DNA of 64,000 nucleotides from an uncultured delta proteobacterium (GCA_963827685.1 CAWHBU010000006.1:352001-416000), one strand, 5' to 3'; shown: positions 7,772-16,475, counted from the stretch's first letter. Numbers and translations: made by a program. Notes: generated by a model not told the origin, from the letters alone.

Positions 7772-9349
7772 TCAAGCAACCCATAGGGTATGCAGTGACG
7801 TCCCCGTATCGTCTACCATCAATTTTGGGATGTCTTTTTGAAGGTCCCAGGGAACAAAGAAAGTCAGGTCGTCAATCTCCTCATGGAGGCTTGAATCACA
7901 TACCTTTCGCAGCCATTCTTTGATCTCATTGATCATCATGACCACCATACGGTCAATTCCCACCGCATGATTCATCTCCTTCAAATATGGAGAGGTTCTC
8001 AGTTGATCCAGACCCTCCTCCAAGTGGATTCCTTCTACCTTCCTGCGGAGGATGTAAACATTTCCTCTGTCCTGAAGGATCACAAGGGGTGGGTTGATCT
8101 GAACACTTGCCTGGTGAAAGCGCACCCCAGAAATGGTTTCGGCGATTTTCGGGAGGAACCTCTTCTTCTTTTCGATGGAGGAAAGAAAACGAGGAGAGGT
8201 TCTTTCAAAGATATACTCCACCCCGTCGTGACGAAATTCCTTCAACTTCGTCGGGTCAAACCCCAATTCGAGGAGATCTGAAATGTTCATACGGGGAGAT
8301 CGTACATCTCTTTTTCTCTCCTCCCACCAAGAGAGGTAGGGTCGTCTATACAGAGGAAGACCCTCGATATAAAGGGTGGGGTCTTCTTTCAGTTCCTGGG
8401 GGAGATGACCAATGATCTCTTTCTCTCCCCATATCTCAGCCTTCCCTTCTTTCGCCCACCAGAGGGAATACGGCTGAATGGGCAGGTTCTTGATCGGGTC
8501 TGAGATGGAGATTTGATCGAGGGACTCTCCGCCCGTATAACCGAGAAGGGATGCAATTCGTCTGCGGAATCCAAGCACTTTCGTGACGAATTTAGTAAAC
8601 ATGAAATGCATAAAGGGAGTCGAAGTCCTGGTTGAGATTTCCATTTCGAAAAGATGTTCCAATGCCTCGTAGACAGCACGAAATTCCATAATCGTCCGTT
8701 TGACCATGGCCTCGTTGTCTTGCATATCGATAATGGGTCTTCTTTTCTTCACTTTGAAGAGGAGCTTGATCAGCTTTCCCCTTAGATCAGGAACGTTTAG
8801 GGTGGCTGGGATGAAGACCATGTAGTTCTCGTCACCATTGACACGACGATCACCGATCAGCTCTTCGATACACTTCCAACCGAGTTTGGTGTAAATGTCG
8901 TAGGTTGGATCATCGGGCGGGATGATATTATCAAGAAGACAGATGACCTCTTGACCCTCTGCAAAGGCTCTAAAGGTCTGAAGGATCTTTTGGCCCAGTC
9001 CTCTGTTGCGAAAAGGAAGCATGACCTCCACATAGACTAAGTAGTAACAGGGAATGGGCTTTCTGAGGTAGATCATATTGAGGTATCCCAGAACCTCTCC
9101 TTCTTCTGTATGGATCTCAAAGGTGTGGAAGAGATGATGACGCTCCTGGGGTCTTAAGCGCTCCACCTTCGTCCCATGGACGGTCCTGTCGACTAACTCA
9201 TCAAGCCCTTCAAAAGCGTCATAAGGGAACAAGGAGGCAAACTCCCTGGGATGATCTTCCAGGGTTAGATCGATCACTGCAAGAACGTCCTTCAAGCCTA
9301 TGCGTGCTTTCTTAAACCTTTCCCTGATTTCTACGACCTCTGATTTCAT
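7772..9349 (-). CDS. GNAT-domain protein with long C-terminal extension (525 aa)
   Basis: Acetyl-CoA motif A VEVMLPFRNRGLG and IYTKLGW; starts 13 bp after the pheA stop. Confidence 0.65.
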   Translation of the reverse strand: MKSEVVEIRERFKKARIGLKDVLAVIDLTLEDHPREFASLFPYDAFEGLDELVDRTVHGTKVERLRPQERHHLFHTFEIHTEEGEVLGYLNMIYLRKPIPCYYLVYVEVMLPFRNRGLGQKILQTFRAFAEGQEVICLLDNIIPPDDPTYDIYTKLGWKCIEELIGDRRVNGDENYMVFIPATLNVPDLRGKLIKLLFKVKKRRPIIDMQDNEAMVKRTIMEFRAVYEALEHLFEMEISTRTSTPFMHFMFTKFVTKVLGFRRRIASLLGYTGGESLDQISISDPIKNLPIQPYSLWWAKEGKAEIWGEKEIIGHLPQELKEDPTLYIEGLPLYRRPYLSWWEERKRDVRSPRMNISDLLELGFDPTKLKEFRHDGVEYIFERTSPRFLSSIEKKKRFLPKIAETISGVRFHQASVQINPPLVILQDRGNVYILRRKVEGIHLEEGLDQLRTSPYLKEMNHAVGIDRMVVMMINEIKEWLRKVCDSSLHEEIDDLTFFVPWDLQKDIPKLMVDDTGTSLHTLWVA

Positions 9350-9362
9350 CGTTTCTTGATTT

Positions 9363-10442
9363 CTACTGTGAACGTTGAGGATAGGAGCCCAGGAGCTTTA
9401 AGAAAAGGGCGTTCCGGCCCAGGTCGCTCATGACCTCACCAATCGGTGCGTCCGTGGCATGGCCTTCTATATCGACAAAGAAGATATATTCCCACGGCTT
9501 CCCTTTGATGGGACGGGATTCGATCTTCGTCAGGTTAATCCCCTTCTCGGAGAAGGGCTTGAGGGCCTGGTAGAGAGAGCCTGGCGCATGGGAGATTGAG
9601 AAAAGGATGGAGGTCTTATCCTTTCCAGTCCTTGGGCTGGGTTGAAGGCCAATGACCAGAAAACGCGTGTAGTTGTTAAGGTAGTCCTCAATCTGTGATT
9701 CTACAACTCTCAGACCATAGAGATGGCCGGCCAGGAAACTGGCAATGGCTGCCACTTTCCCATTCTCAACGGCCATCTGCGCCGCCTTCGCCGTGCTCAC
9801 TGTCTCGGCCACCTCAACATGAGGGAAGCTTTTTCTCAACCACTTTCGGCATTGCTCTAAGGCCGAGGGATGAGAATAGATCTTTCGGATGTCTTCTGAC
9901 CTTCCACTTTGAGAAAGAAGGTGATGCGAGACCTGAATCATCACTTCCCCACAGATCATCACTTCTGACTCGATCAACATATCTAAGGTTTGATTCACCG
10001 ATCCTTCAGTGGAATTTTCTATGGGCACGATTCCATAATTCGCCCTCTTCCTCTCCACCGCTTCAAAGACCTCTTGGATGCTTTCTTTGGGCTGTGTTTG
10101 AATGGAGCTCCCAAAATATTCGAAGCAAGCTAAGTGAGTGTGGGTGGCGGGTGGACCGAGATACGCCACGGCAAACTCGGTTTCCAGAGAGCGGCACGCT
10201 GAGATGATTTCTCGAAAGACAGGGAAAATGCCCTGCTTGGGGAACCGGCCATTGTTTTGTAAGACCAAGGCCCCGAGAACCTCGTCCTCCCTCTGAGAGT
10301 CGTAGGACTCCATCTTGCCTTCTGATTTTATCTTACCCACTTCCATGACGATCTCTGCCCGCTCGTTCAAAAGGCGGAGGATCTGTCTGTCCACTGTCTC
10401 GATCTTCTGGCGAAGGGGCTTGATCTTTTCTTCTGTCTCCAT
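9363..10442 (-). CDS. pheA: Chorismate mutase/prephenate dehydratase (P-protein)
   Basis: AroQ N-terminus, VAYLGP..TH, ENSTEG, NYTRFL and ACT-domain LTKIESRP; start revised to ATG 10442. Confidence 0.92.
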   Translation of the reverse strand: METEEKIKPLRQKIETVDRQILRLLNERAEIVMEVGKIKSEGKMESYDSQREDEVLGALVLQNNGRFPKQGIFPVFREIISACRSLETEFAVAYLGPPATHTHLACFEYFGSSIQTQPKESIQEVFEAVERKRANYGIVPIENSTEGSVNQTLDMLIESEVMICGEVMIQVSHHLLSQSGRSEDIRKIYSHPSALEQCRKWLRKSFPHVEVAETVSTAKAAQMAVENGKVAAIASFLAGHLYGLRVVESQIEDYLNNYTRFLVIGLQPSPRTGKDKTSILFSISHAPGSLYQALKPFSEKGINLTKIESRPIKGKPWEYIFFVDIEGHATDAPIGEVMSDLGRNALFLKLLGSYPQRSQ

Positions 10443-10522
10443 TTCATCAATACGCCTAATCCGAGCAACTAAGAGCTTATCCTTAAATAGTAAGTAATGG
10501 TTGTTCCTAATATCCCGCTTCA

Positions 10523-10565
10523 AATCCCCCCTCCCCCCCTTTACTAAAGGGGGGGGAAGTTATTT
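10523..10565. repeat. CCCCCTTT-N-AAAGGGGG palindromic intergenic repeat
   Basis: Related copies at about 25677-25722, 39498-39543 and 58593-58662. Confidence 0.6.
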
Positions 10566-10580
10566 GTGATCTTTCATGCC

Positions 10581-11573
10581 TTACTTTTCAAGGATGGTCT
10601 CCTCAACCTGAACGCCGAAATGCCTTCCTGTCTTCTCACGATAGACGAGAACCTCGCTCCCCTTTTTGAGATCGATGAGCGAAACCGCTTTCCCGGAGGG
10701 ATCGGCAAGACAGATCGTTTCTGCATTCTGCAAGATGACCGAAACGGTCTGGCCCCTTTCCTCAGCTTCCACCAAAGCCAGGGGGCGCCTTTCTATCTTC
10801 ACCCTTCCTACCACGGCCGGATAACTTTTGCCTTTAAAATTTACGACTAATACCCGATCGCCAGATCTGATCTCTGAAAGATATTTTGTCTGCCCGTCGG
10901 CCAGGCGAATATAGGCATGCACGGGTCCTGCATTCACTCGGAAAGGCCGGGTATTCACAAAGGGATTCTCGACACTTTCGGAATGAACCAGGAAGAGGGC
11001 CTGGCTGCTATTCCCGACCAACATCCCTTCGCCAAGGGTCATTGAAGTGCACGTGTCCACGCAGACCCGATCCCCCAGGCCAAGTGGCTCGATGCGTTTA
11101 ATCTTGGCCGGCAAAAGTTCGAATGTTTCGCTCTTGCTTTTAAGAAGCTGGACGATATGCCGCACGGCATCAGGGTCAGGATTATTGATCACCACTCCAT
11201 CCACTCCCTTTTCGAGGATGCCCAGAGCCGTCTCTCCTCCTTTTAAACTATCAACCTCGACGAAGAGGTTATTCGCCTTACTCAACAAATTCTCCAGAGG
11301 GATGATCGTCCAATCGACTCCTCTTACCACCACCTTCTTAGAAAGACTGAGGGCAATGACCTCTTCTTCGTCCTTTTTCTCCCTGATCTCTTTTTCCACC
11401 ACATCGCGGCCCAATACCAAATCCCCGTCCTCGGCCACGGTCGCGATGATGCCCATCTTCCTCACCTCTGATCTCATTCCAGCAGGGACCCAGAGGGCAT
11501 CGGCCCCAGCCTCCACGGCAACCAAGGCGACCTCCTTGCTCCAGGGTACGGCTTTTACCCATACCTTTTTCAT
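10581..11573 (-). CDS. 3-dehydroquinate synthase II (archaeal-type AroB')
   Basis: [35 protein letters not shown] and GRHFG motifs. Confidence 0.92.
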
Positions 11574-12370
11574 GCCTTCACCTCTAACTTCCTTCGCTTT
11601 TCTTCAAACACGGTGCTACTGTGAACAATTCTGCAAATGGTTTGAACCATCTTCTCCGGGTCCTTGTGCTGGAAAACGTTTCTGCCAATGGAGACTCCTG
11701 CTCCCCCTGCGGCCATCGCACCCTTGATCATGTCGATGATATCCTCATCGTTACCCATCTTCTCCCCACCTGCAATGACCACCGGAACAAAACATCCTTC
11801 CACCACTTCCCTGAAGCTATCTGCAGAACCCGTATAGACCACCTTGATAATATCTGCTCCCAGCTCAGCTCCTACTCGAGCGGCATGTTTCACCAGTTTT
11901 ACGTCATATTCATTCCGCACCTTGGGACCCCTCGTGTACATCATTGCTAAAAGCGGCATCCCCCATTCGGAAGCCACCTTAGCGACCCTCCCCAGGTCCT
12001 CTAACATGGATCTCTCATCTTCCGATCCGAGGTTCACATGGATCGAGACTGCATCCGCTCCTAACTTGATTGCCTCTTCCACCGTGCATACAATGGTTTT
12101 GGAGCTTGGATCAGGCGCCAGCTGTGTGCTCGCAGAGAGGTGAACGATCAACCCCACATCCCTTCCCTTTCTCCTGTGACCCGCCTCAACCAATCCCTTG
12201 TGGAGAATAATGGCATTGGCTCCTCCAATCGCTACGGCATTAATCGTCTCTTGCATATTGATCAACCCAGCGACTGGCCCAATGGTCACTCCGTGATCCA
12301 TGGGAACGATGACTGTCTTACCTGAATTCCTGTCCATGATACGTTCCATACGAATCTTTTTCCCAATCAT
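11570..12370 (-). CDS. 2-amino-3,7-dideoxy-D-threo-hept-6-ulosonate synthase (archaeal-type AroA', DhnA-type class I aldolase)
   Basis: [24 protein letters not shown] motifs; overlaps the DHQ synthase II start. Confidence 0.88.
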
Positions 12371-12397: not shown

Positions 12398-12430
12398 AAA
12401 AAAGCCGTGAGAGGAATTTTCCCACGGCTT
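12398..12430 (-). terminator. Second (downstream) intrinsic terminator of the aro attenuator
   Basis: AAGCCGTGGGAAAATTCCTCTCACGGC followed by TTTTTT. Confidence 0.8.
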
Positions 12431-12435
12431 AAAAT

Positions 12436-12472
12436 AAAAAGGCCGTGGGTAGTTTCGATCTACCCACGGCCT
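12436..12472 (-). terminator. First intrinsic terminator of the aro attenuator
   Basis: AGGCCGTGGGTAG-ATCGAAA-CTACCCACGGCC followed by TTTTT. Confidence 0.85.
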
Positions 12473-12492
12473 CCACCAGCTAAATCTAATTT

Positions 12493-12588
12493 CTAACGAT
12501 CAGCCAGCCGCAGCGGGTAGACTTGGGCATAATAAAACCAATAAAAGTTAAACCCTCTGCTAAAATTGAAAAGACGAAGCTGATCCAC
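12493..12588 (-). CDS. Aromatic amino acid attenuator leader peptide (M)[30 protein letters not shown]
   Basis: GTG start after GAAGGTGGAAG; FYWFYY codon run; followed by an antiterminator-complementary segment and terminators. Confidence 0.8.
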
Positions 12589-12610
12589 CTTCCACCTTCT
12601 ATTCAAAAGA

Positions 12611-12639
12611 CTTCTAACACAGCCCAAATGCTTTGTCAA
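12611..12639 (-). promoter_or_regulatory. Sigma70-type promoter of the aro leader
   Basis: TTGACA-17 bp-TAGAAG with a TG extension. Confidence 0.6.
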
Positions 12640-12692
12640 GAAATATGTTCGAAAAACCATTTCGCACCGATGAGAACCGAGAAGGAGTCCCT

Positions 12693-13202
12693 TCACAGAC
12701 GTGCCAAGATCAATAGATTTGTCCCTTTATCCACGTCCTGGCCTTCCTTCACCAGGACCTCTTTCACTTTTCCTTGAATCGGAGAGGGGATAGGCATTTC
12801 CATCTTCATGGCCTCGATAATGATGAGTACCTGGTCAATTTCTACTGTCTCTTCTTCCTCAATCAGAATTTTGATCACTTTACAGGCCAAGGGTGAGGCC
12901 AAGACTTCTTTCTCAGGTATACCAACTGCTTCTTTTCCGGGGAGAAGTGCCATCTTATCCGGCCGAAGGATTTCCCCCCGGTAATTCCCTCCTTTTATGA
13001 AGGCCTCGTAGACATCCCCTTCCTCCACGATATCCACTTCATAGGATTTTCCGTCGCAGATCATGGAGAAAAGATTGTCTGAGACCTCCAAGACATCGAC
13101 CAAATGGGTACGATCCATAGAGGAAATTTGATAGAGGTGATCTCCCAATGGCTCCACTTGAACGGAACAAATCCCTTCCTCTGTTTTAATTTTATATTCC
13201 AT
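12693..13202 (-). CDS. Biotin carboxyl carrier protein
   Basis: EAMKME biotinylation motif; start revised to ATG 13202 (MEYKIK). Confidence 0.88.
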   Translation of the reverse strand: MEYKIKTEEGICSVQVEPLGDHLYQISSMDRTHLVDVLEVSDNLFSMICDGKSYEVDIVEEGDVYEAFIKGGNYRGEILRPDKMALLPGKEAVGIPEKEVLASPLACKVIKILIEEEETVEIDQVLIIIEAMKMEMPIPSPIQGKVKEVLVKEGQDVDKGTNLLILARL

Positions 13203-14633
13203 GCTCGGTCTCCTTCTGATCTTTCTCATAGGCCCGGATGGCAGCGGCAATACAGGCCAACTCCTGGAAGGAATCATGGGTCTCCCTTTTCTTTTGGAAA
13301 TACTCCTCCTCGAGAAAGTGGGTATCGAAATCTCCCTGAATGAACCGTTGATTGTTGACAAGCCAGCGGTGAAAGGGAATCGTGGTCTTAATCCCCTTGA
13401 TGACTAATTCCTGGAGAGCTCGATCCATTCGCAAAATGGCCTCTTGGCGATTTCTTCCCCAAACAATGACCTTGGCAATGATGGGGTCGTAGAAGATGGG
13501 AACCGTGTACCCTTCATAGATTCCAAGGTCCACCCGCACTCCGGGCCCCCGGGGATCTGAAGCCTCTCAATTCTACCCGTGGAAGGCAAAAAGTTGTCTT
13601 CGGGATCCTCCGCATAGATTCGGCAAACCAGGGAGGCCCCAATGGGTTCAACATCCTTTTGGGTCAGAGGAAGTTTCTCACCTTCCGCAATACGGATCTG
13701 GGCCTTCACAATGTCCACTCCGGTCACCATTTCCGTCACCGGATGTTCTACCTGGAGTCGGGCGTTGAGTTCCAAGTAGTAAAAATTTTTCTCACGATCC
13801 ACAAGGAATTCCACAGTCCCCGCCCCACTATATTTGATGGCGATGGCAGCAGAGAGGGCCACCCCGGCCATTCGAAGGCGGGTCGTATCATCTAGAAAAG
13901 GAGAAGGACATTCCTCTAAGATCTTTTGGTATCTCCTTTGGATAGAACATTCCCGGTCGAAGAGGTGGATGATGTTGCCGTAATGATCCGCCAAGATCTG
14001 AAACTCGATGTGGCGTGCATTCGGGATATATTTCTCCAGGTAGAGGTCATCGTTTCCGAACGACGCCTTGGCTTCTGCCCTGGCCACATTCATGGCTTGA
14101 AAAAGCTGAGCACCCTGATCCACCCGTCGGATCCCCTTGCCTCCCCCGCCCGCAACCGCTTTGATCAGAACTGGATATCCTAAAGCATTCGCAGCCTCGA
14201 GAGCCTTCTCCTTATTGTCCAGGGGACAGTGGCTTCCCGGGATCACAGTGATTTGTGCTTGGGTCATATTGGATTTAGCCCCCATCTTCCTTCCCATGGT
14301 TTCCAAGGATTCTCCGGAAGGACCGATGAAGGTGATCCCCTCCTTCTGGCACGCTTGGGCGAATTCCCGGTTTTCTGCCAAAAATCCATATCCCGGATGA
14401 ATGGCATCTGCTTTGGCTTCTCTGGCTATATCTAAAATTTTATCTCTTGCGAGGTAAGTCTCATCGGAAGGCCCGGAGCCCAAGCTGTAAGCCTCGTCTG
14501 CATAACGGACATGTAACGCCCCGCGATCCGATTCGGAATAGACGGCCACTACCGAAATCCCCAACTCATGACAGGCACGAAGAATACGAACTGCAATTTC
14601 TCCTCGATTGGCAATGAGTATCTTCTTAAACAC
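13192..14633 (-). pseudogene. accC: Biotin carboxylase subunit with a 1-bp frameshift near 13543 (real lesion or assembly error)
   Basis: ANRGEIA, HPGYGFLAEN, RLQVEHPVTE; expected PGGPGVRVD is split between two frames. Confidence 0.8.
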
Positions 14634-14827
14634 GACTTTCCCTCCCTTCTGATCTCTATAATCCTACTTTTGCTCTCTACAATTCAAATCTTTTTGCTTT
14701 AGGGTCTTCCTCAACTTCATTGCCCAAAAAAGGTTTAAGGATTCCACGGTTCAAATGATGTGAAATGAACCACTCGATTCCTTGACCCCTCGAATCCTTA
14801 TGATTGTATCAACTTTTTGAAGACGAT

Positions 14828-15976
14828 TCATATCTTCAAGCTATCCGCTATCTGCGAGGCTACGGGTGGGCATCCCTGAATAAAGGTACCCCGGCTTTTC
14901 ATCTTCGATGTACAGTTTCCTATCAGGATCGTTCCTTTCGGAAAAGCATTCAGGTGTTTCCCAATTCCGATATGAATGTTCTCATCCTCCAAACGATAGT
15001 CCGTAAGCCTTGAACGGTAATCTTGAAGAAAGACCAACAGCGTTGAAAGGCAGGCGCTGCACGATCCCTCATCATGGATGATGAGATCAGGAAAAAGAAT
15101 AGATAGTTTGGAGGGGGAAGGATTGAAAGGAAATTCCCATTTTAAATAATCCTTGGGTTTGATAGAAATCTTTTGAAGTTCGATTTTCCCCAACCCTTTT
15201 TCAGCTGATAGCTTGAGGTGAGGGACTGCCTCTGGGCTTAAGCCCATCAGCCGGGCAGCCACCGCATCGGTTGAAAGGGCATTGTTGCCAACGAGGATCA
15301 TTCCCATCTTCTTCACTTGCCCATAAGCCGGCCCCATCCCTTCCATCCCCACAGTGCCATCAATGATGGCTAAATGGGGGGAGAGGACCGAAGCCATCTC
15401 TGAGATGGCGATATCCAATTCTTTATGACCCCTGGTGATCTTCTTATCACAACGGAGTTGATGGAATCTCGCCTTTTCTCTGCGCCATAATAAACCTTTC
15501 ATATTCTTGATGCTCAGCGTGACCTGGGTGTGCATGTGGGTTTTCATCACCGGGACAGAAATAATGAAATCGAACTCCTTTAGCACAGCAGGGATTTTAA
15601 TCTTCTTAACAACTTTTCCTCCTGGGATCGTTATCTCCATTGGATCCCCCTGATCCAAATCGAGAAGCTCAACCTTTTTCTCTTCAGAGATCCCTTTCAA
15701 CCCCGTCACTTGAAACGCCTCTTTCGCATTCACTCCAAAGATACAACTCTCACCAATGACGATGCGGCGGACTCCTCTCTCTCTCAGGTGGTCGATGGTA
15801 GCAGCGACCACCTGGGGATGGGTCGTCACTCCGTCTCCAGGGGAGGCCAATCGGGCCGCATTGGGTTTGATCAGGACATTCCTTCCCTTCAGATGGGATA
15901 AGGGAACCTTTTGAAGTCCACGTTTTGCCGTGCGATAGGGATTTTCCCCTTTCGAAACGATCACCAGAGGTTCCAT
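14828..15976 (-). CDS. DUF362-domain Fe-S protein
   Basis: VLIKPN, TTHP, PVMKTH, TLSIKNMKG, IIDG..GMEG.GP, plus C-terminal CSAC, GNC and GCPP; start revised to ATG 15976 (GGAG RBS). Confidence 0.85.
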   Translation of the reverse strand: MEPLVIVSKGENPYRTAKRGLQKVPLSHLKGRNVLIKPNAARLASPGDGVTTHPQVVAATIDHLRERGVRRIVIGESCIFGVNAKEAFQVTGLKGISEEKKVELLDLDQGDPMEITIPGGKVVKKIKIPAVLKEFDFIISVPVMKTHMHTQVTLSIKNMKGLLWRREKARFHQLRCDKKITRGHKELDIAISEMASVLSPHLAIIDGTVGMEGMGPAYGQVKKMGMILVGNNALSTDAVAARLMGLSPEAVPHLKLSAEKGLGKIELQKISIKPKDYLKWEFPFNPSPSKLSILFPDLIIHDEGSCSACLSTLLVFLQDYRSRLTDYRLEDENIHIGIGKHLNAFPKGTILIGNCTSKMKSRGTFIQGCPPVASQIADSLKI

Positions 15977-15995
15977 TGACACATTCTCCACAAAC

Positions 15996-16023
15996 AAAAA
16001 AACCATAGAGAAGTCCTCTATGG
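15996..16023 (-). terminator. Second terminator of the DUF362 attenuator
   Basis: CCATAGAG-GACTT-CTCTATGG followed by a T run. Confidence 0.75.
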
Positions 16024-16031
16024 CCCTAAAA

Positions 16032-16070
16032 CAAAAGGGCCATGGATTTTAATCACCCATGGCCCTTTTG
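16032..16070 (-). terminator. First terminator of the DUF362 attenuator
   Basis: CAAAAGGGCCATGG...CCATGGCCCTTTTG followed by TTTT. Confidence 0.8.
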
Positions 16071-16085
16071 ACAATATACTATCAT

Positions 16086-16130
16086 CTAAGCGCACAGGTG
16101 AATGGCTTGACGATAATAATAATCAAACAT
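16086..16130 (-). CDS. Tyr-rich attenuator leader peptide MFDYYYRQAIHLCA (alternative in-frame ATG at 16151)
   Basis: Three consecutive TAT codons; lies between a consensus promoter and two terminators. Confidence 0.7.
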   Translation of the reverse strand: MFDYYYRQAIHLCA

Positions 16131-16168: not shown

Positions 16169-16197
16169 TTTATAATTTATTAGAGAATAATTGTCAA
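16169..16197 (-). promoter_or_regulatory. Sigma70-type promoter of the Tyr leader
   Basis: TTGACA-17 bp-TATAAA. Confidence 0.7.
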
Positions 16198-16199
16198 GA

Positions 16200-16352
16200 G
16201 TGAAGCTCTCCGGCCACAGGCCGGGGCTTCCCGGGCACGCAGTGGCGAGCGGAAAGCGAGCAAATGAAATATCGTTTTAATTGTGCCCCTTAACCCCGCC
16301 TACCTGCCTACCGCAGGCAGGCAAGGCGGGGCTTGCGGGGCACTTGCCGGCC
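16200..16352. mobile_element. Non-coding GC-rich hairpin element (IS200/IS605-like MITE) with a nested 19-bp hairpin
   Basis: Two related hairpins, each followed by GGGGCTT..GGGCAC; CCTGCCTACCGCAGGCAGG (16303-16321) interrupts CCCCGCCTA|CAAGGCGGGG. Confidence 0.5.
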
Positions 16353-16475
16353 AAAAACCCTTGCCCGCCCCCAGTTTTTCCTTATCCTTTCCAGGCCGGG
16401 TGGCTTGCTCCTAAAAAACTCAGTACTTCTAAAAAACTGGGAGAGGGCAAGTTAACAGACTTTCATATGTCGAAG

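Follow-up and report, generated by a model that had tools for sequence, protein, structure and literature searches.

Two short leaders on the minus strand of a 64,000-nucleotide (nt) stretch of DNA from an uncultured delta proteobacterium (GCA_963827685.1, CAWHBU010000006.1:352001-416000; hereafter the window) appear to be leader-peptide attenuators of transcription, mediated by the ribosome and responsive to charged aromatic tRNAs, both built on one conserved platform with two serial intrinsic terminators. Leader 1 (12588-12398) precedes an operon that begins with the gene for ADH synthase (2-amino-3,7-dideoxy-D-threo-hept-6-ulosonate synthase), and leader 2 (16130-15996) precedes a DUF362 gene. 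We give this reading as a whole a probability of roughly 0.6, and its parts differ in strength. That both leaders are leader-peptide attenuators, as an earlier note on this DNA had proposed, is very likely from the folding models, with in silico support from the aromatic open reading frame (ORF), the terminators and a helix that competes with the first of them (B:C, below). A relay from the first terminator to the second is plausible and fits the conservation. We infer that termination takes place in vivo at both hairpins and that the helix of the relay (D:E) lasts long enough.

The leader 1 ORF, with the Shine-Dalgarno-like stretch GAAGGTGG immediately 5' of it, encodes a peptide in which 10 of the 31 residues are aromatic, and the leader 2 peptide holds F plus YYY within 14 residues. 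The four hairpins of the two leaders have stems of -14 to -28 kcal/mol and U-tracts directly 3'. The tails of terminator 1 (T1) read U5AU4 in leader 1 and U4GU4 in leader 2, and the tract 3' of the terminator 2 (T2) hairpin of leader 1 (12430-12402) is UUUUUUAAUUUU. T2 is followed by AGGAGG and the ATG at 12370 in leader 1, and by U7GUUUG, GGAG and the ATG at 15976 in leader 2; this gap of ~30 nt, which includes the Shine-Dalgarno sequence, leaves no room for a promoter. Segment B, the anti-T1 strand, lies in the 3' part of the ORF, in leader 2 as UUCACCUGUGCGCUUA (16102-16087).

On the folding models, the leaders are best read as a chain of mutually exclusive helices, with A:B, C:D (T1) and E:F (T2) set against B:C and D:E. 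With aromatic amino acids in good supply, the ribosome would reach the end of the mini-ORF and cover B, C would then pair with D to form T1, and a polymerase escaping T1 would meet T2. A ribosome stalled on the Phe, Tyr or Trp codons would leave B free to pair with the emerging C and so block T1; D, thus unpaired, would capture E before F is made, T2 would fail to form and the operon would be transcribed. If the leader were untranslated, the upstream segment A could sequester B, which would again lead to termination.

Four complementarities had been quoted in the earlier note, two in each leader, and all of them exist and exceed shuffled controls. The duplex energies in leader 1 are -22.9 (B:C), -29.8 (T1), -18.0 (D:E) and -18.8 kcal/mol (T2), and those of B:C and D:E in leader 2 are -17.5 and -15.6 kcal/mol. 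The B:C energy was matched by 18 (leader 1) and 9 (leader 2) of 1000 dinucleotide shuffles of the upstream region, a null that replaced the comparison of the own upstream region with 5' arms, which was poorly matched in arm length; shuffles of the E arm matched D:E in 0 and 1 of 1000 cases respectively. Over all five such leaders of the genome (the other three are described below), the counts per 1000 shuffles were 18, 9, 27, 45 and 3 for B:C and 0, 1, 0, 5 and 0 for D:E. In a comparison of D with 1463 other terminator-like hairpins of the genome, their 5' arms paired with it equally well in fractions of 0.002 and 0.010. The strand that a block of T1 would free is complementary in silico to the 5' arm of T2, as had been claimed: in leader 1 the E arm also pairs with D (CCCACGGC:GCCGUGGG), and in leader 2 AGGGCCAU, the 5' arm of T2, is complementary to AUGGCCCU of T1. 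The D:E hairpins of the five leaders (-15.7, -15.5, -31.1, -11.3 and -17.1 kcal/mol, leaders 1 and 2 first) are predicted to be comparable in stability with T2 (-16.4, -13.9, -19.4, -18.4 and -19.3 kcal/mol).

Both leaders fold more stably as a whole than any of 200 shuffles (z = -4.28 for leader 1 and -5.66 for leader 2), and the minimum-energy folds of both have T1 and T2 adjacent. It is hardly credible that these are non-regulatory hairpins, be they terminators that belong to upstream genes or repeat copies of a palindromic element. Terminator-like sites are indeed not enriched between 9000 and 21000 (14 against 12.6 +/- 3.4 expected), and similar arms recur in the genome; however, each terminator pair has a conserved promoter and a leader ORF of its own on the 5' side and a start codon directly after it, and the arrangement accompanies orthologous genes over genera. 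What is special here is the arrangement and the cross-complementarity rather than the number of terminator-like sites.

Folding with the leader masked or unmasked, a check suggested in the earlier note, separated the two states. When a ribosome was set on the regulatory codons, leaving RNA free from 13 nt beyond the A site, the nascent transcript up to and including C folded into B:C, at -28.5 kcal/mol in leader 1 and -19.7 kcal/mol in leader 2, and the same was seen in all five leaders of the genome (-13.8 to -28.5 kcal/mol). A ribosome at the stop codon covered B; C then began 7-13 nt past the covered stretch and T1 formed. In the untranslated leader 2, B was sequestered and the Tyr codon region paired with the stop region, and the untranslated leader of a trpD-like gene elsewhere in the genome (the Trp leader below) formed an A:B-type helix over its regulatory codons. 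For nt 76-208 of leader 1, T1 plus T2 came to -56.5 kcal/mol against -45.6 kcal/mol for imposed B:C plus D:E; the direct-path barriers from B:C to T1, which are rough heuristics, were 13.0 (leader 1) and 14.7 kcal/mol (leader 2).

The his leader (hisL) of Salmonella and E. coli, reportedly described by Johnston et al. in 1980, is said to form the same chain of A:B, C:D and E:F against B:C and D:E. There too one leader peptide sets a cascade of exclusive helices, in which a stall frees B, B:C frees D and D:E blocks the last hairpin. In the his leader, however, only E:F terminates, whereas here C:D has its own U-tract and two terminators would be governed; the codons are aromatic and not His, the phylum is another one and there is no sequence relation. 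We considered whether the present leaders might nevertheless work in the his manner, with T1 as a pause or anti-antiterminator hairpin whose U-run is a pause site coupling ribosome and polymerase, and T2 as the sole terminator. The topology, like that given for the his leader, and the A:B-like helices over the regulatory codons in the untranslated leader 2 and trpD leader would agree with this. Yet T1 is stronger than T2 in three of the five leaders (-27.6, -23.7 and -25.2 kcal/mol) and is directly U-tailed (U5AU4, U4GU4 or U6GU3), which is the canonical anatomy of an intrinsic terminator; the T1 of leader 1 was also called by a consensus scan, and two relatives of leader 2 (L035 and L036) retain T1 alone. 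We therefore regard a his-type function of T1 as distinctly unlikely.

The 5.2-Mb assembly contains 3308 non-overlapping terminator-like hairpins, as counted by a scan made in two parts with a seed filter, and the strongest D:E pairings among adjacent pairs with two good terminators are those of leaders 1 and 2, of the leaders of an aminotransferase and an MBL-fold gene (below) and of a pair on C5 that has no leader ORF. A strict tandem list held 24 pairs and a relaxed one 134, mainly noise from weak hairpins within genes; leader 2 was absent from the strict list, as its local optimum is D:E and not T2, and so was the trpD leader, because of its 33-nt spacer. The scan for mini-ORFs with cross-complementary double terminators, which the earlier note had called for, brought to light three further aromatic or Trp leaders. 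Two of these, before an aminotransferase gene and a gene for an MBL-fold protein, have Phe/Tyr peptides and double terminators. In the third, the Trp leader, T1 is followed by a 33-nt spacer with a small hairpin, T2 and an anthranilate phosphoribosyltransferase-like gene (trpD, named from its N-terminus by eye); its D:E is 8 bp, and the U-tract of T1 pairs with an A-run before T2, giving a structure of -31.1 kcal/mol. An MBL-fold homologue, judged by eye, also follows an aromatic leader in a distant genome (L111). Biased mini-ORFs before terminators numbered 285, then 52 as candidates, and only the five aromatic or Trp leaders were judged convincing; no His, Thr or Leu leader was found in the genome by this search, a method that does not prove absence.

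The 5' arms of T1 read GCC(A/G)UGGG in all five leaders, so that leaders 1 and 2 are variants of one module and not independent as had been thought: a single transition within GCCRUGGG separates their T1 arms, GCCGUGGGUAG and GCCAUGGGUGA. T1 and T2 are 8 nt apart in leader 1 and 6 nt in leader 2 (6-33 nt over the copies in the genome), and spacers of 8 and 6 nt are too short for an ORF or an aptamer, leaving no place for a second sensor between the terminators.

Orthologues of leader 1 were found through the ADH synthase protein, at 17 loci with 63-100% identity in 41 genomes searched, a count that leaves out two further protein matches without assigned loci. The leader peptide and both terminators are present in 13 of the 17 loci, the window's own genome counted. 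Of the other four, L017 has a different aromatic leader with one U-tailed hairpin, and L011, L014 and L015 are without the mini-ORF; L015 retains the 3' arm of T1 (D) together with T2, which from its sequence looks like regulatory turnover caught midway. We also observed by eye a tRNA 3' end upstream in L011 and L014, as well as a long hairpin in L014 and L015 and, in all three, a different promoter-like block.

Among the 13 leader 1 sequences, 94.7% of the alignment cells are paired in the off structure (96.6% for A:B and 95.4% for T1), and six pairs have changed on both sides, a number reached by 6 of 500 shuffles; two of the nine A:B pairs are of this kind, and one A:B pair occurs as U-A, C-G and U-G. 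In the on structure 93.6% of cells are paired, with 98.1% for the B:C core and 99.0% for D:E. The arms differ in their constancy: C is invariant at 11 of 11 positions and the E core at 7 of 8; D is constant at 7 of 11, its changes being solely from C to U, which still pairs with G; and F, the sole arm with one partner, is invariant at only 1 of 8. This pattern fits what a relay would be expected to leave in the sequence.

The platform recurs across genera. Among the species genomes of the GTDB collection, 37 contain the exact leader 1 pattern, with records from Thermodesulfobacteriota, Syntrophaceae, Syntrophobacterales, Syntrophorhabdus, Desulfobacteraceae and similar, plus one Anaerolineales match without U-tracts. 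In an even sample of the phylum, the loose pattern GCCRTGGG…CCCAYGGC…GCCRTRG matched 101 of 401 genomes and 76 of 254 genera, against 8 genomes for the reversed control, with some loose matches being GC-rich coding sequence without U-tracts; both patterns fix C, D and E by construction and so lend the relay no support on the conservation of those arms. With five leaders in this genome and 13 of 17 orthologue loci besides, the idea of a lineage-wide design has held up, on pattern searches and not on a covariance model. The 30 loci returned held 26 U-tailed matches, and 23 of these had a biased mini-ORF upstream; the other three were palindromic arms read on the reverse strand. Behind the 23 lie, as judged by eye from N-termini, genes for 16 aminotransferases, three DAHP-synthase-like proteins and one each of ADH synthase, trpD-like, ilvB-like and MBL-fold proteins. 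The mini-ORFs that precede the exact pattern in other genomes include the MDQLR…FNFYWFYY…YPLPLADH type, Trp runs (NNWWWW; NWCWWWF…VYPLPGG), GGYYFGWFYYAGVYPPPGS, NFFSFFSFF, a Val run (LIVVVVIV…SCPLPG) and a Leu-rich peptide.

Across leader types, strand B follows its target. In 60 of 63 distinct leaders, and in 13 of 14 types, the upstream region finds a better partner in its own C than in the C of another type (means of -23.0 against -17.2 kcal/mol), showing that B tracks C, with the proviso that related sequences are not independent. At the R/Y position of 25 U-tailed platforms, C, D and E agree in 23, are wobble-compatible in one and mismatched in one. We observed that the anti-T1 strand is always encoded by (Tyr/His/Cys)-Pro codons (…VYPLP…, …VYPPPG…, …AHPCP followed by stop, …GHP followed by stop; leaders 1 and 2 and L046-L112), and one may speculate that Pro-rich ends of the leader peptides slow the ribosome over strand B.

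The unusual conservation of the stem, over 76 of the 254 sampled genera and in leaders for different amino acids, might also suggest a trans-acting RNA-binding protein that recognizes the GCCRUGGG hairpins phylum-wide and sets termination, the mini-ORFs being secondary. We consider this very improbable, as the leader codons match the genes (Trp runs with trpD, Phe/Tyr with aromatic genes, Val with ilvB-like) and pairing with several partners explains the invariance by itself.

Leader 2 was found in 7 of 15 DUF362 loci, all within the genus and the window's own genome counted, with the peptide in relatives reading MFDYYYYLQAIHLCA. An eighth locus, L040, has a variant with the peptide …NCFYYW… and other stems in which D:E is kept (CCUGUGG:CCGCAGG, -13.8 kcal/mol). 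The T2 stems of L034-L036 have decayed and reach only -5.8 to -7.8 kcal/mol, and in L035 and L036 D:E is lost as well; judged from these sequences, T2 and its putative antiterminator disappear together.

Several points weigh against the two-terminator reading. The decay of T2 in three of the eight leader 2 versions indicates that T2 is dispensable and that one terminator suffices. B:C and D:E are conserved but scarcely co-vary within the orthologue set, 6 of 8 D:E pairs being invariant, and the covariation score of the whole on structure is not above that of shuffles (196 of 500). The arms shared by T1 and T2 may reflect a duplication of T1 or simply the palindromic CCAUGG, and the D:E complementarity would then come free. 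The barriers from D:E to T2 are modest in rough estimates (11.3, 6.1, 14.4, 8.0 and 7.4 kcal/mol, the first two for leaders 1 and 2), and two of the five leaders, those of the aminotransferase and MBL genes, retain B:C at equilibrium when B is free but fold T2 all the same; these folds and the barriers of 6-14 kcal/mol lend no support to full read-through in the on state. The untranslated leader 1 gives B:C or A:B according to the 5' end chosen, a near tie. Finally, a lookup of sequencing runs listed no RNA run for this organism, which is known only as an assembly.

Several of these points would be accommodated by an ordinary attenuator with one switch, B:C against T1, in which T2 is a leaky back-up or a remnant of T1 duplication and D:E a by-product. 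Besides the decay of T2 in L034-L036, where T1 and the leader peptide are retained, and the lack of D:E co-variation within orthologues, it would account for T1 and T2 arms that are near-copies and for a T2 that is more stable than D:E in two of the five leaders at equilibrium. Yet a strong unregulated terminator ~30 nt before the start would cap expression, and T2 with its U-tract is kept in 13 of 13 leader 1 orthologues. The E arm is invariant while its T2 partner F drifts, a pattern that a free-standing hairpin would not be expected to show; D:E persists with different sequences in L040 and the trpD leader; and T2 and D:E are lost jointly in L035 and L036. We therefore rate the one-switch explanation as unlikely, if still worth serious attention, and prefer the two-terminator attenuator.

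The features are collected in Table 1. The minus strand carries all genes from 7.7 to 21.6 kb. The promoter block of leader 1 (TTGACA...TGTTAnnnn) is kept in the upstream regions of its orthologues, and a consensus promoter scan called neither the leader 1 nor the leader 2 promoter.

Table 1. Positions and properties of the two leaders, their genes and the related elements of the genome (energies in kcal/mol)
Feature	Position	Strand	Details
Leader 1 promoter	12611-12639	-	TTGACA (12639-12634), 17-nt spacer, TG-n-TAGAAG (12619-12611); read from sequence
Leader 1 ORF	12493-12588	-	GTG at 12588; 31 codons + stop; peptide starts (M)
Leader 1 segment A (GCAGAGGGU)	12552-12560	-	partner in B is ACCCGCUGC, if leader untranslated; from fold
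Leader 1 segment B (GUCUACCCGCUGCGGCU)	12506-12522	-	anti-T1 strand; 3' part of leader ORF
Leader 1 T1	12438-12474	-	C arm 12474-12460, D arm 12452-12438; then UUUUUAUUUU; -27.6
Leader 1 T2 + U-tract	12398-12430	-	E arm 12430-12420, F arm 12412-12402; -16.4
Leader 1 operon	7772-12370	-	four proteins; Pfam and NCBIfam
ADH synthase	11570-12370	-	TIGR01949, 376 bits (cut-off 299)
3-Dehydroquinate (DHQ) synthase II	10581-11573	-	NF002627, 447 bits (cut-off 392)
Chorismate mutase/prephenate dehydratase	9363-10523	-	Pfam
525-aa GNAT-domain protein	7772-9349	-	Pfam
Leader 2 promoter	16169-16197	-	TTGACA (16197-16192), 17-nt spacer, TATAAA (16174-16169); kept in L031-L037
Leader 2 ORF	16086-16130	-	ATG at 16130; peptide MFDYYYRQAIHLCA, then stop
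Leader 2 T1	16034-16068	-	then UUUUGUUUU; -23.7
Leader 2 T2 + U-tract	15993-16027	-	hairpin 16027-15999; -13.9
DUF362 gene	14828-15976	-	382 aa from ATG at 15976; Pfam PF04015, 174 bits
Aminotransferase leader	C3:424867-424936 (L102, C3:424799-424936)		peptide MFNFYFFYFVGRHP, then stop; before class I/II, PRK06836-type aminotransferase
MBL leader	C7:106704-106784 (L113, C7:106622-106784)		peptide MQFRNFFYFYFNRAHPYP, then stop; before MBL-fold protein
Trp leader	C6:349496 (L114, C6:349230-349600)	-	peptide MEIIFRIKQGNWWWWQNIEGEVCPVPS, then stop; 2.4 kb outside window
Hairpins without biased mini-ORF	C5:103460-103703 (pair C5:103600-103703)	+	three alike, arms CCACGAAGG…CUCGUGG

For leader 1 the amino acids that would be sensed match the genes, as ADH synthase, DHQ synthase II and chorismate mutase/prephenate dehydratase belong to aromatic biosynthesis. 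For the DUF362 protein no NCBIfam family was over the cut-off; its orthologue alignments begin at the ATG at 15976, and its tie to the aromatic pathway is synteny with aro and trp genes only. With neighbours named by eye, the DUF362 gene of L040 is found immediately 5' of the ADH synthase leader; in L039 it follows a trpD-like gene, and in L043 and L044 it comes next to the 525-aa GNAT gene closing the aro operon, on its 3' side. From these sequences the DUF362 protein may belong to aromatic amino-acid metabolism.

A few other features of the window and genome were noted in passing. The last two of the three C5 hairpins are U-tailed, with a D:E-type pairing of -13.3 kcal/mol, and are flanked by a TTGACA promoter-like site on the 5' side and a methyltransferase-like ORF on the 3' side. 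Between a pterin-binding gene and the leader 2 promoter there is a GC-rich palindromic stretch (16230-16400; …GCCUGCCUGCGGUAGGCAGGUAGGC…), and hairpins with CCUGCCUGCCGGCAGGCAGG-like arms elsewhere in the genome, e.g. at C4:566972 and C9:32210, suggest that it is a repeated element. A biotin carboxylase frame (13192-14633, minus strand) is broken near 13400-13540, with the Pfam Biotin_carb_C match cut at residue 367 and the rest in another frame (13192-13539), and a biotinyl-carrier ORF is next to it (12693-13361); either a frameshift or an assembly error would account for the break. At gathering level, Rfam matched the window only once, with a group II intron domain (RF00029, 44 bits) at 2002-2071 on the plus strand.

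Attenuation by leader peptides is standard textbook matter, described mostly in Proteobacteria and Actinobacteria, and the aromatic leader-peptide attenuators of E. coli and Corynebacterium glutamicum are not known to have more than a single terminator. The present leaders differ from those in their two terminators with interlocking arms, in the genes of the ADH synthase/DHQ synthase II route and in a platform sequence specific to Thermodesulfobacteriota-like genomes. The likeness lies in a short Trp or Phe/Tyr ORF before aromatic genes and in a stall that raises transcription, so far as PMC11802643 describes these features for trpL-trpEDCBA, pheL-pheA and pheST of E. coli and trpL and aroR-aroF of C. 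glutamicum (the latter from Neshat et al. 2014). Two serial terminators in one 5' leader also occur, according to the portions of the reports cited here, in Desulfovibrio thiSGHFE, with two tandem THI-elements and a terminator each (PMC545781), and in the tandem attenuators of Salmonella mgtCBR (PMC3641672); as these accounts present them, each terminator there has its own sensor, whereas here one leader ORF would serve both. The rimP-leader of some Gammaproteobacteria, as outlined in PMC2965389, is a conserved leader with a second terminator in tandem and a potential antiterminator, but it is described there with another signal and other genes and with no leader peptide. Neither leader reached the gathering score of the Rfam amino-acid leader families (Trp_leader, Phe_leader, His_leader and others). 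At E <= 10 the Rfam candidates were the trpB motif (23.3 bits; gathering 59) and DapZ (21.6 bits), which we set aside as generic two-hairpin or terminator likenesses. Our literature search found no leader-peptide attenuator with two relayed terminators and no leader-peptide attenuation in Deltaproteobacteria, and PMC545781 contains nothing on leader peptides; Lopatovskaya et al. 2010 (cited in PMC4833913, 'chains of RNA helices') may bear on priority.

A wider proposal, which we put forward tentatively and with the odds somewhat against it, is that Thermodesulfobacteriota-like genomes carry a modular chassis. The two-terminator platform would have been copied before many operons, with the anti-T1 strand held in the last (Tyr/His/Cys)-Pro codons and the sensor codons swapped (Trp, Phe/Tyr, Val, Leu), and the relay would make a switch of low leak. 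The regulon would then mark DUF362, the MBL-fold hydrolase and the 525-aa GNAT protein as unrecognized players in aromatic synthesis by the ADH synthase/DHQ synthase II route, for whose precursor supply in bacteria we know of no account.

These leaders point to a recurrent, sequence-conserved version of the attenuator in a large anaerobic phylum, in which two terminators would answer to a single sensing event. A working relay would be a natural design for a tighter transcriptional switch without a second sensor, and it would account for a stem sequence frozen over the phylum. The combination of a mini-ORF and a GCCRUGGG double terminator would then serve as a signature for amino-acid regulons in uncultured genomes, one that already ties the genes for DUF362 and MBL-fold proteins to aromatic metabolism.

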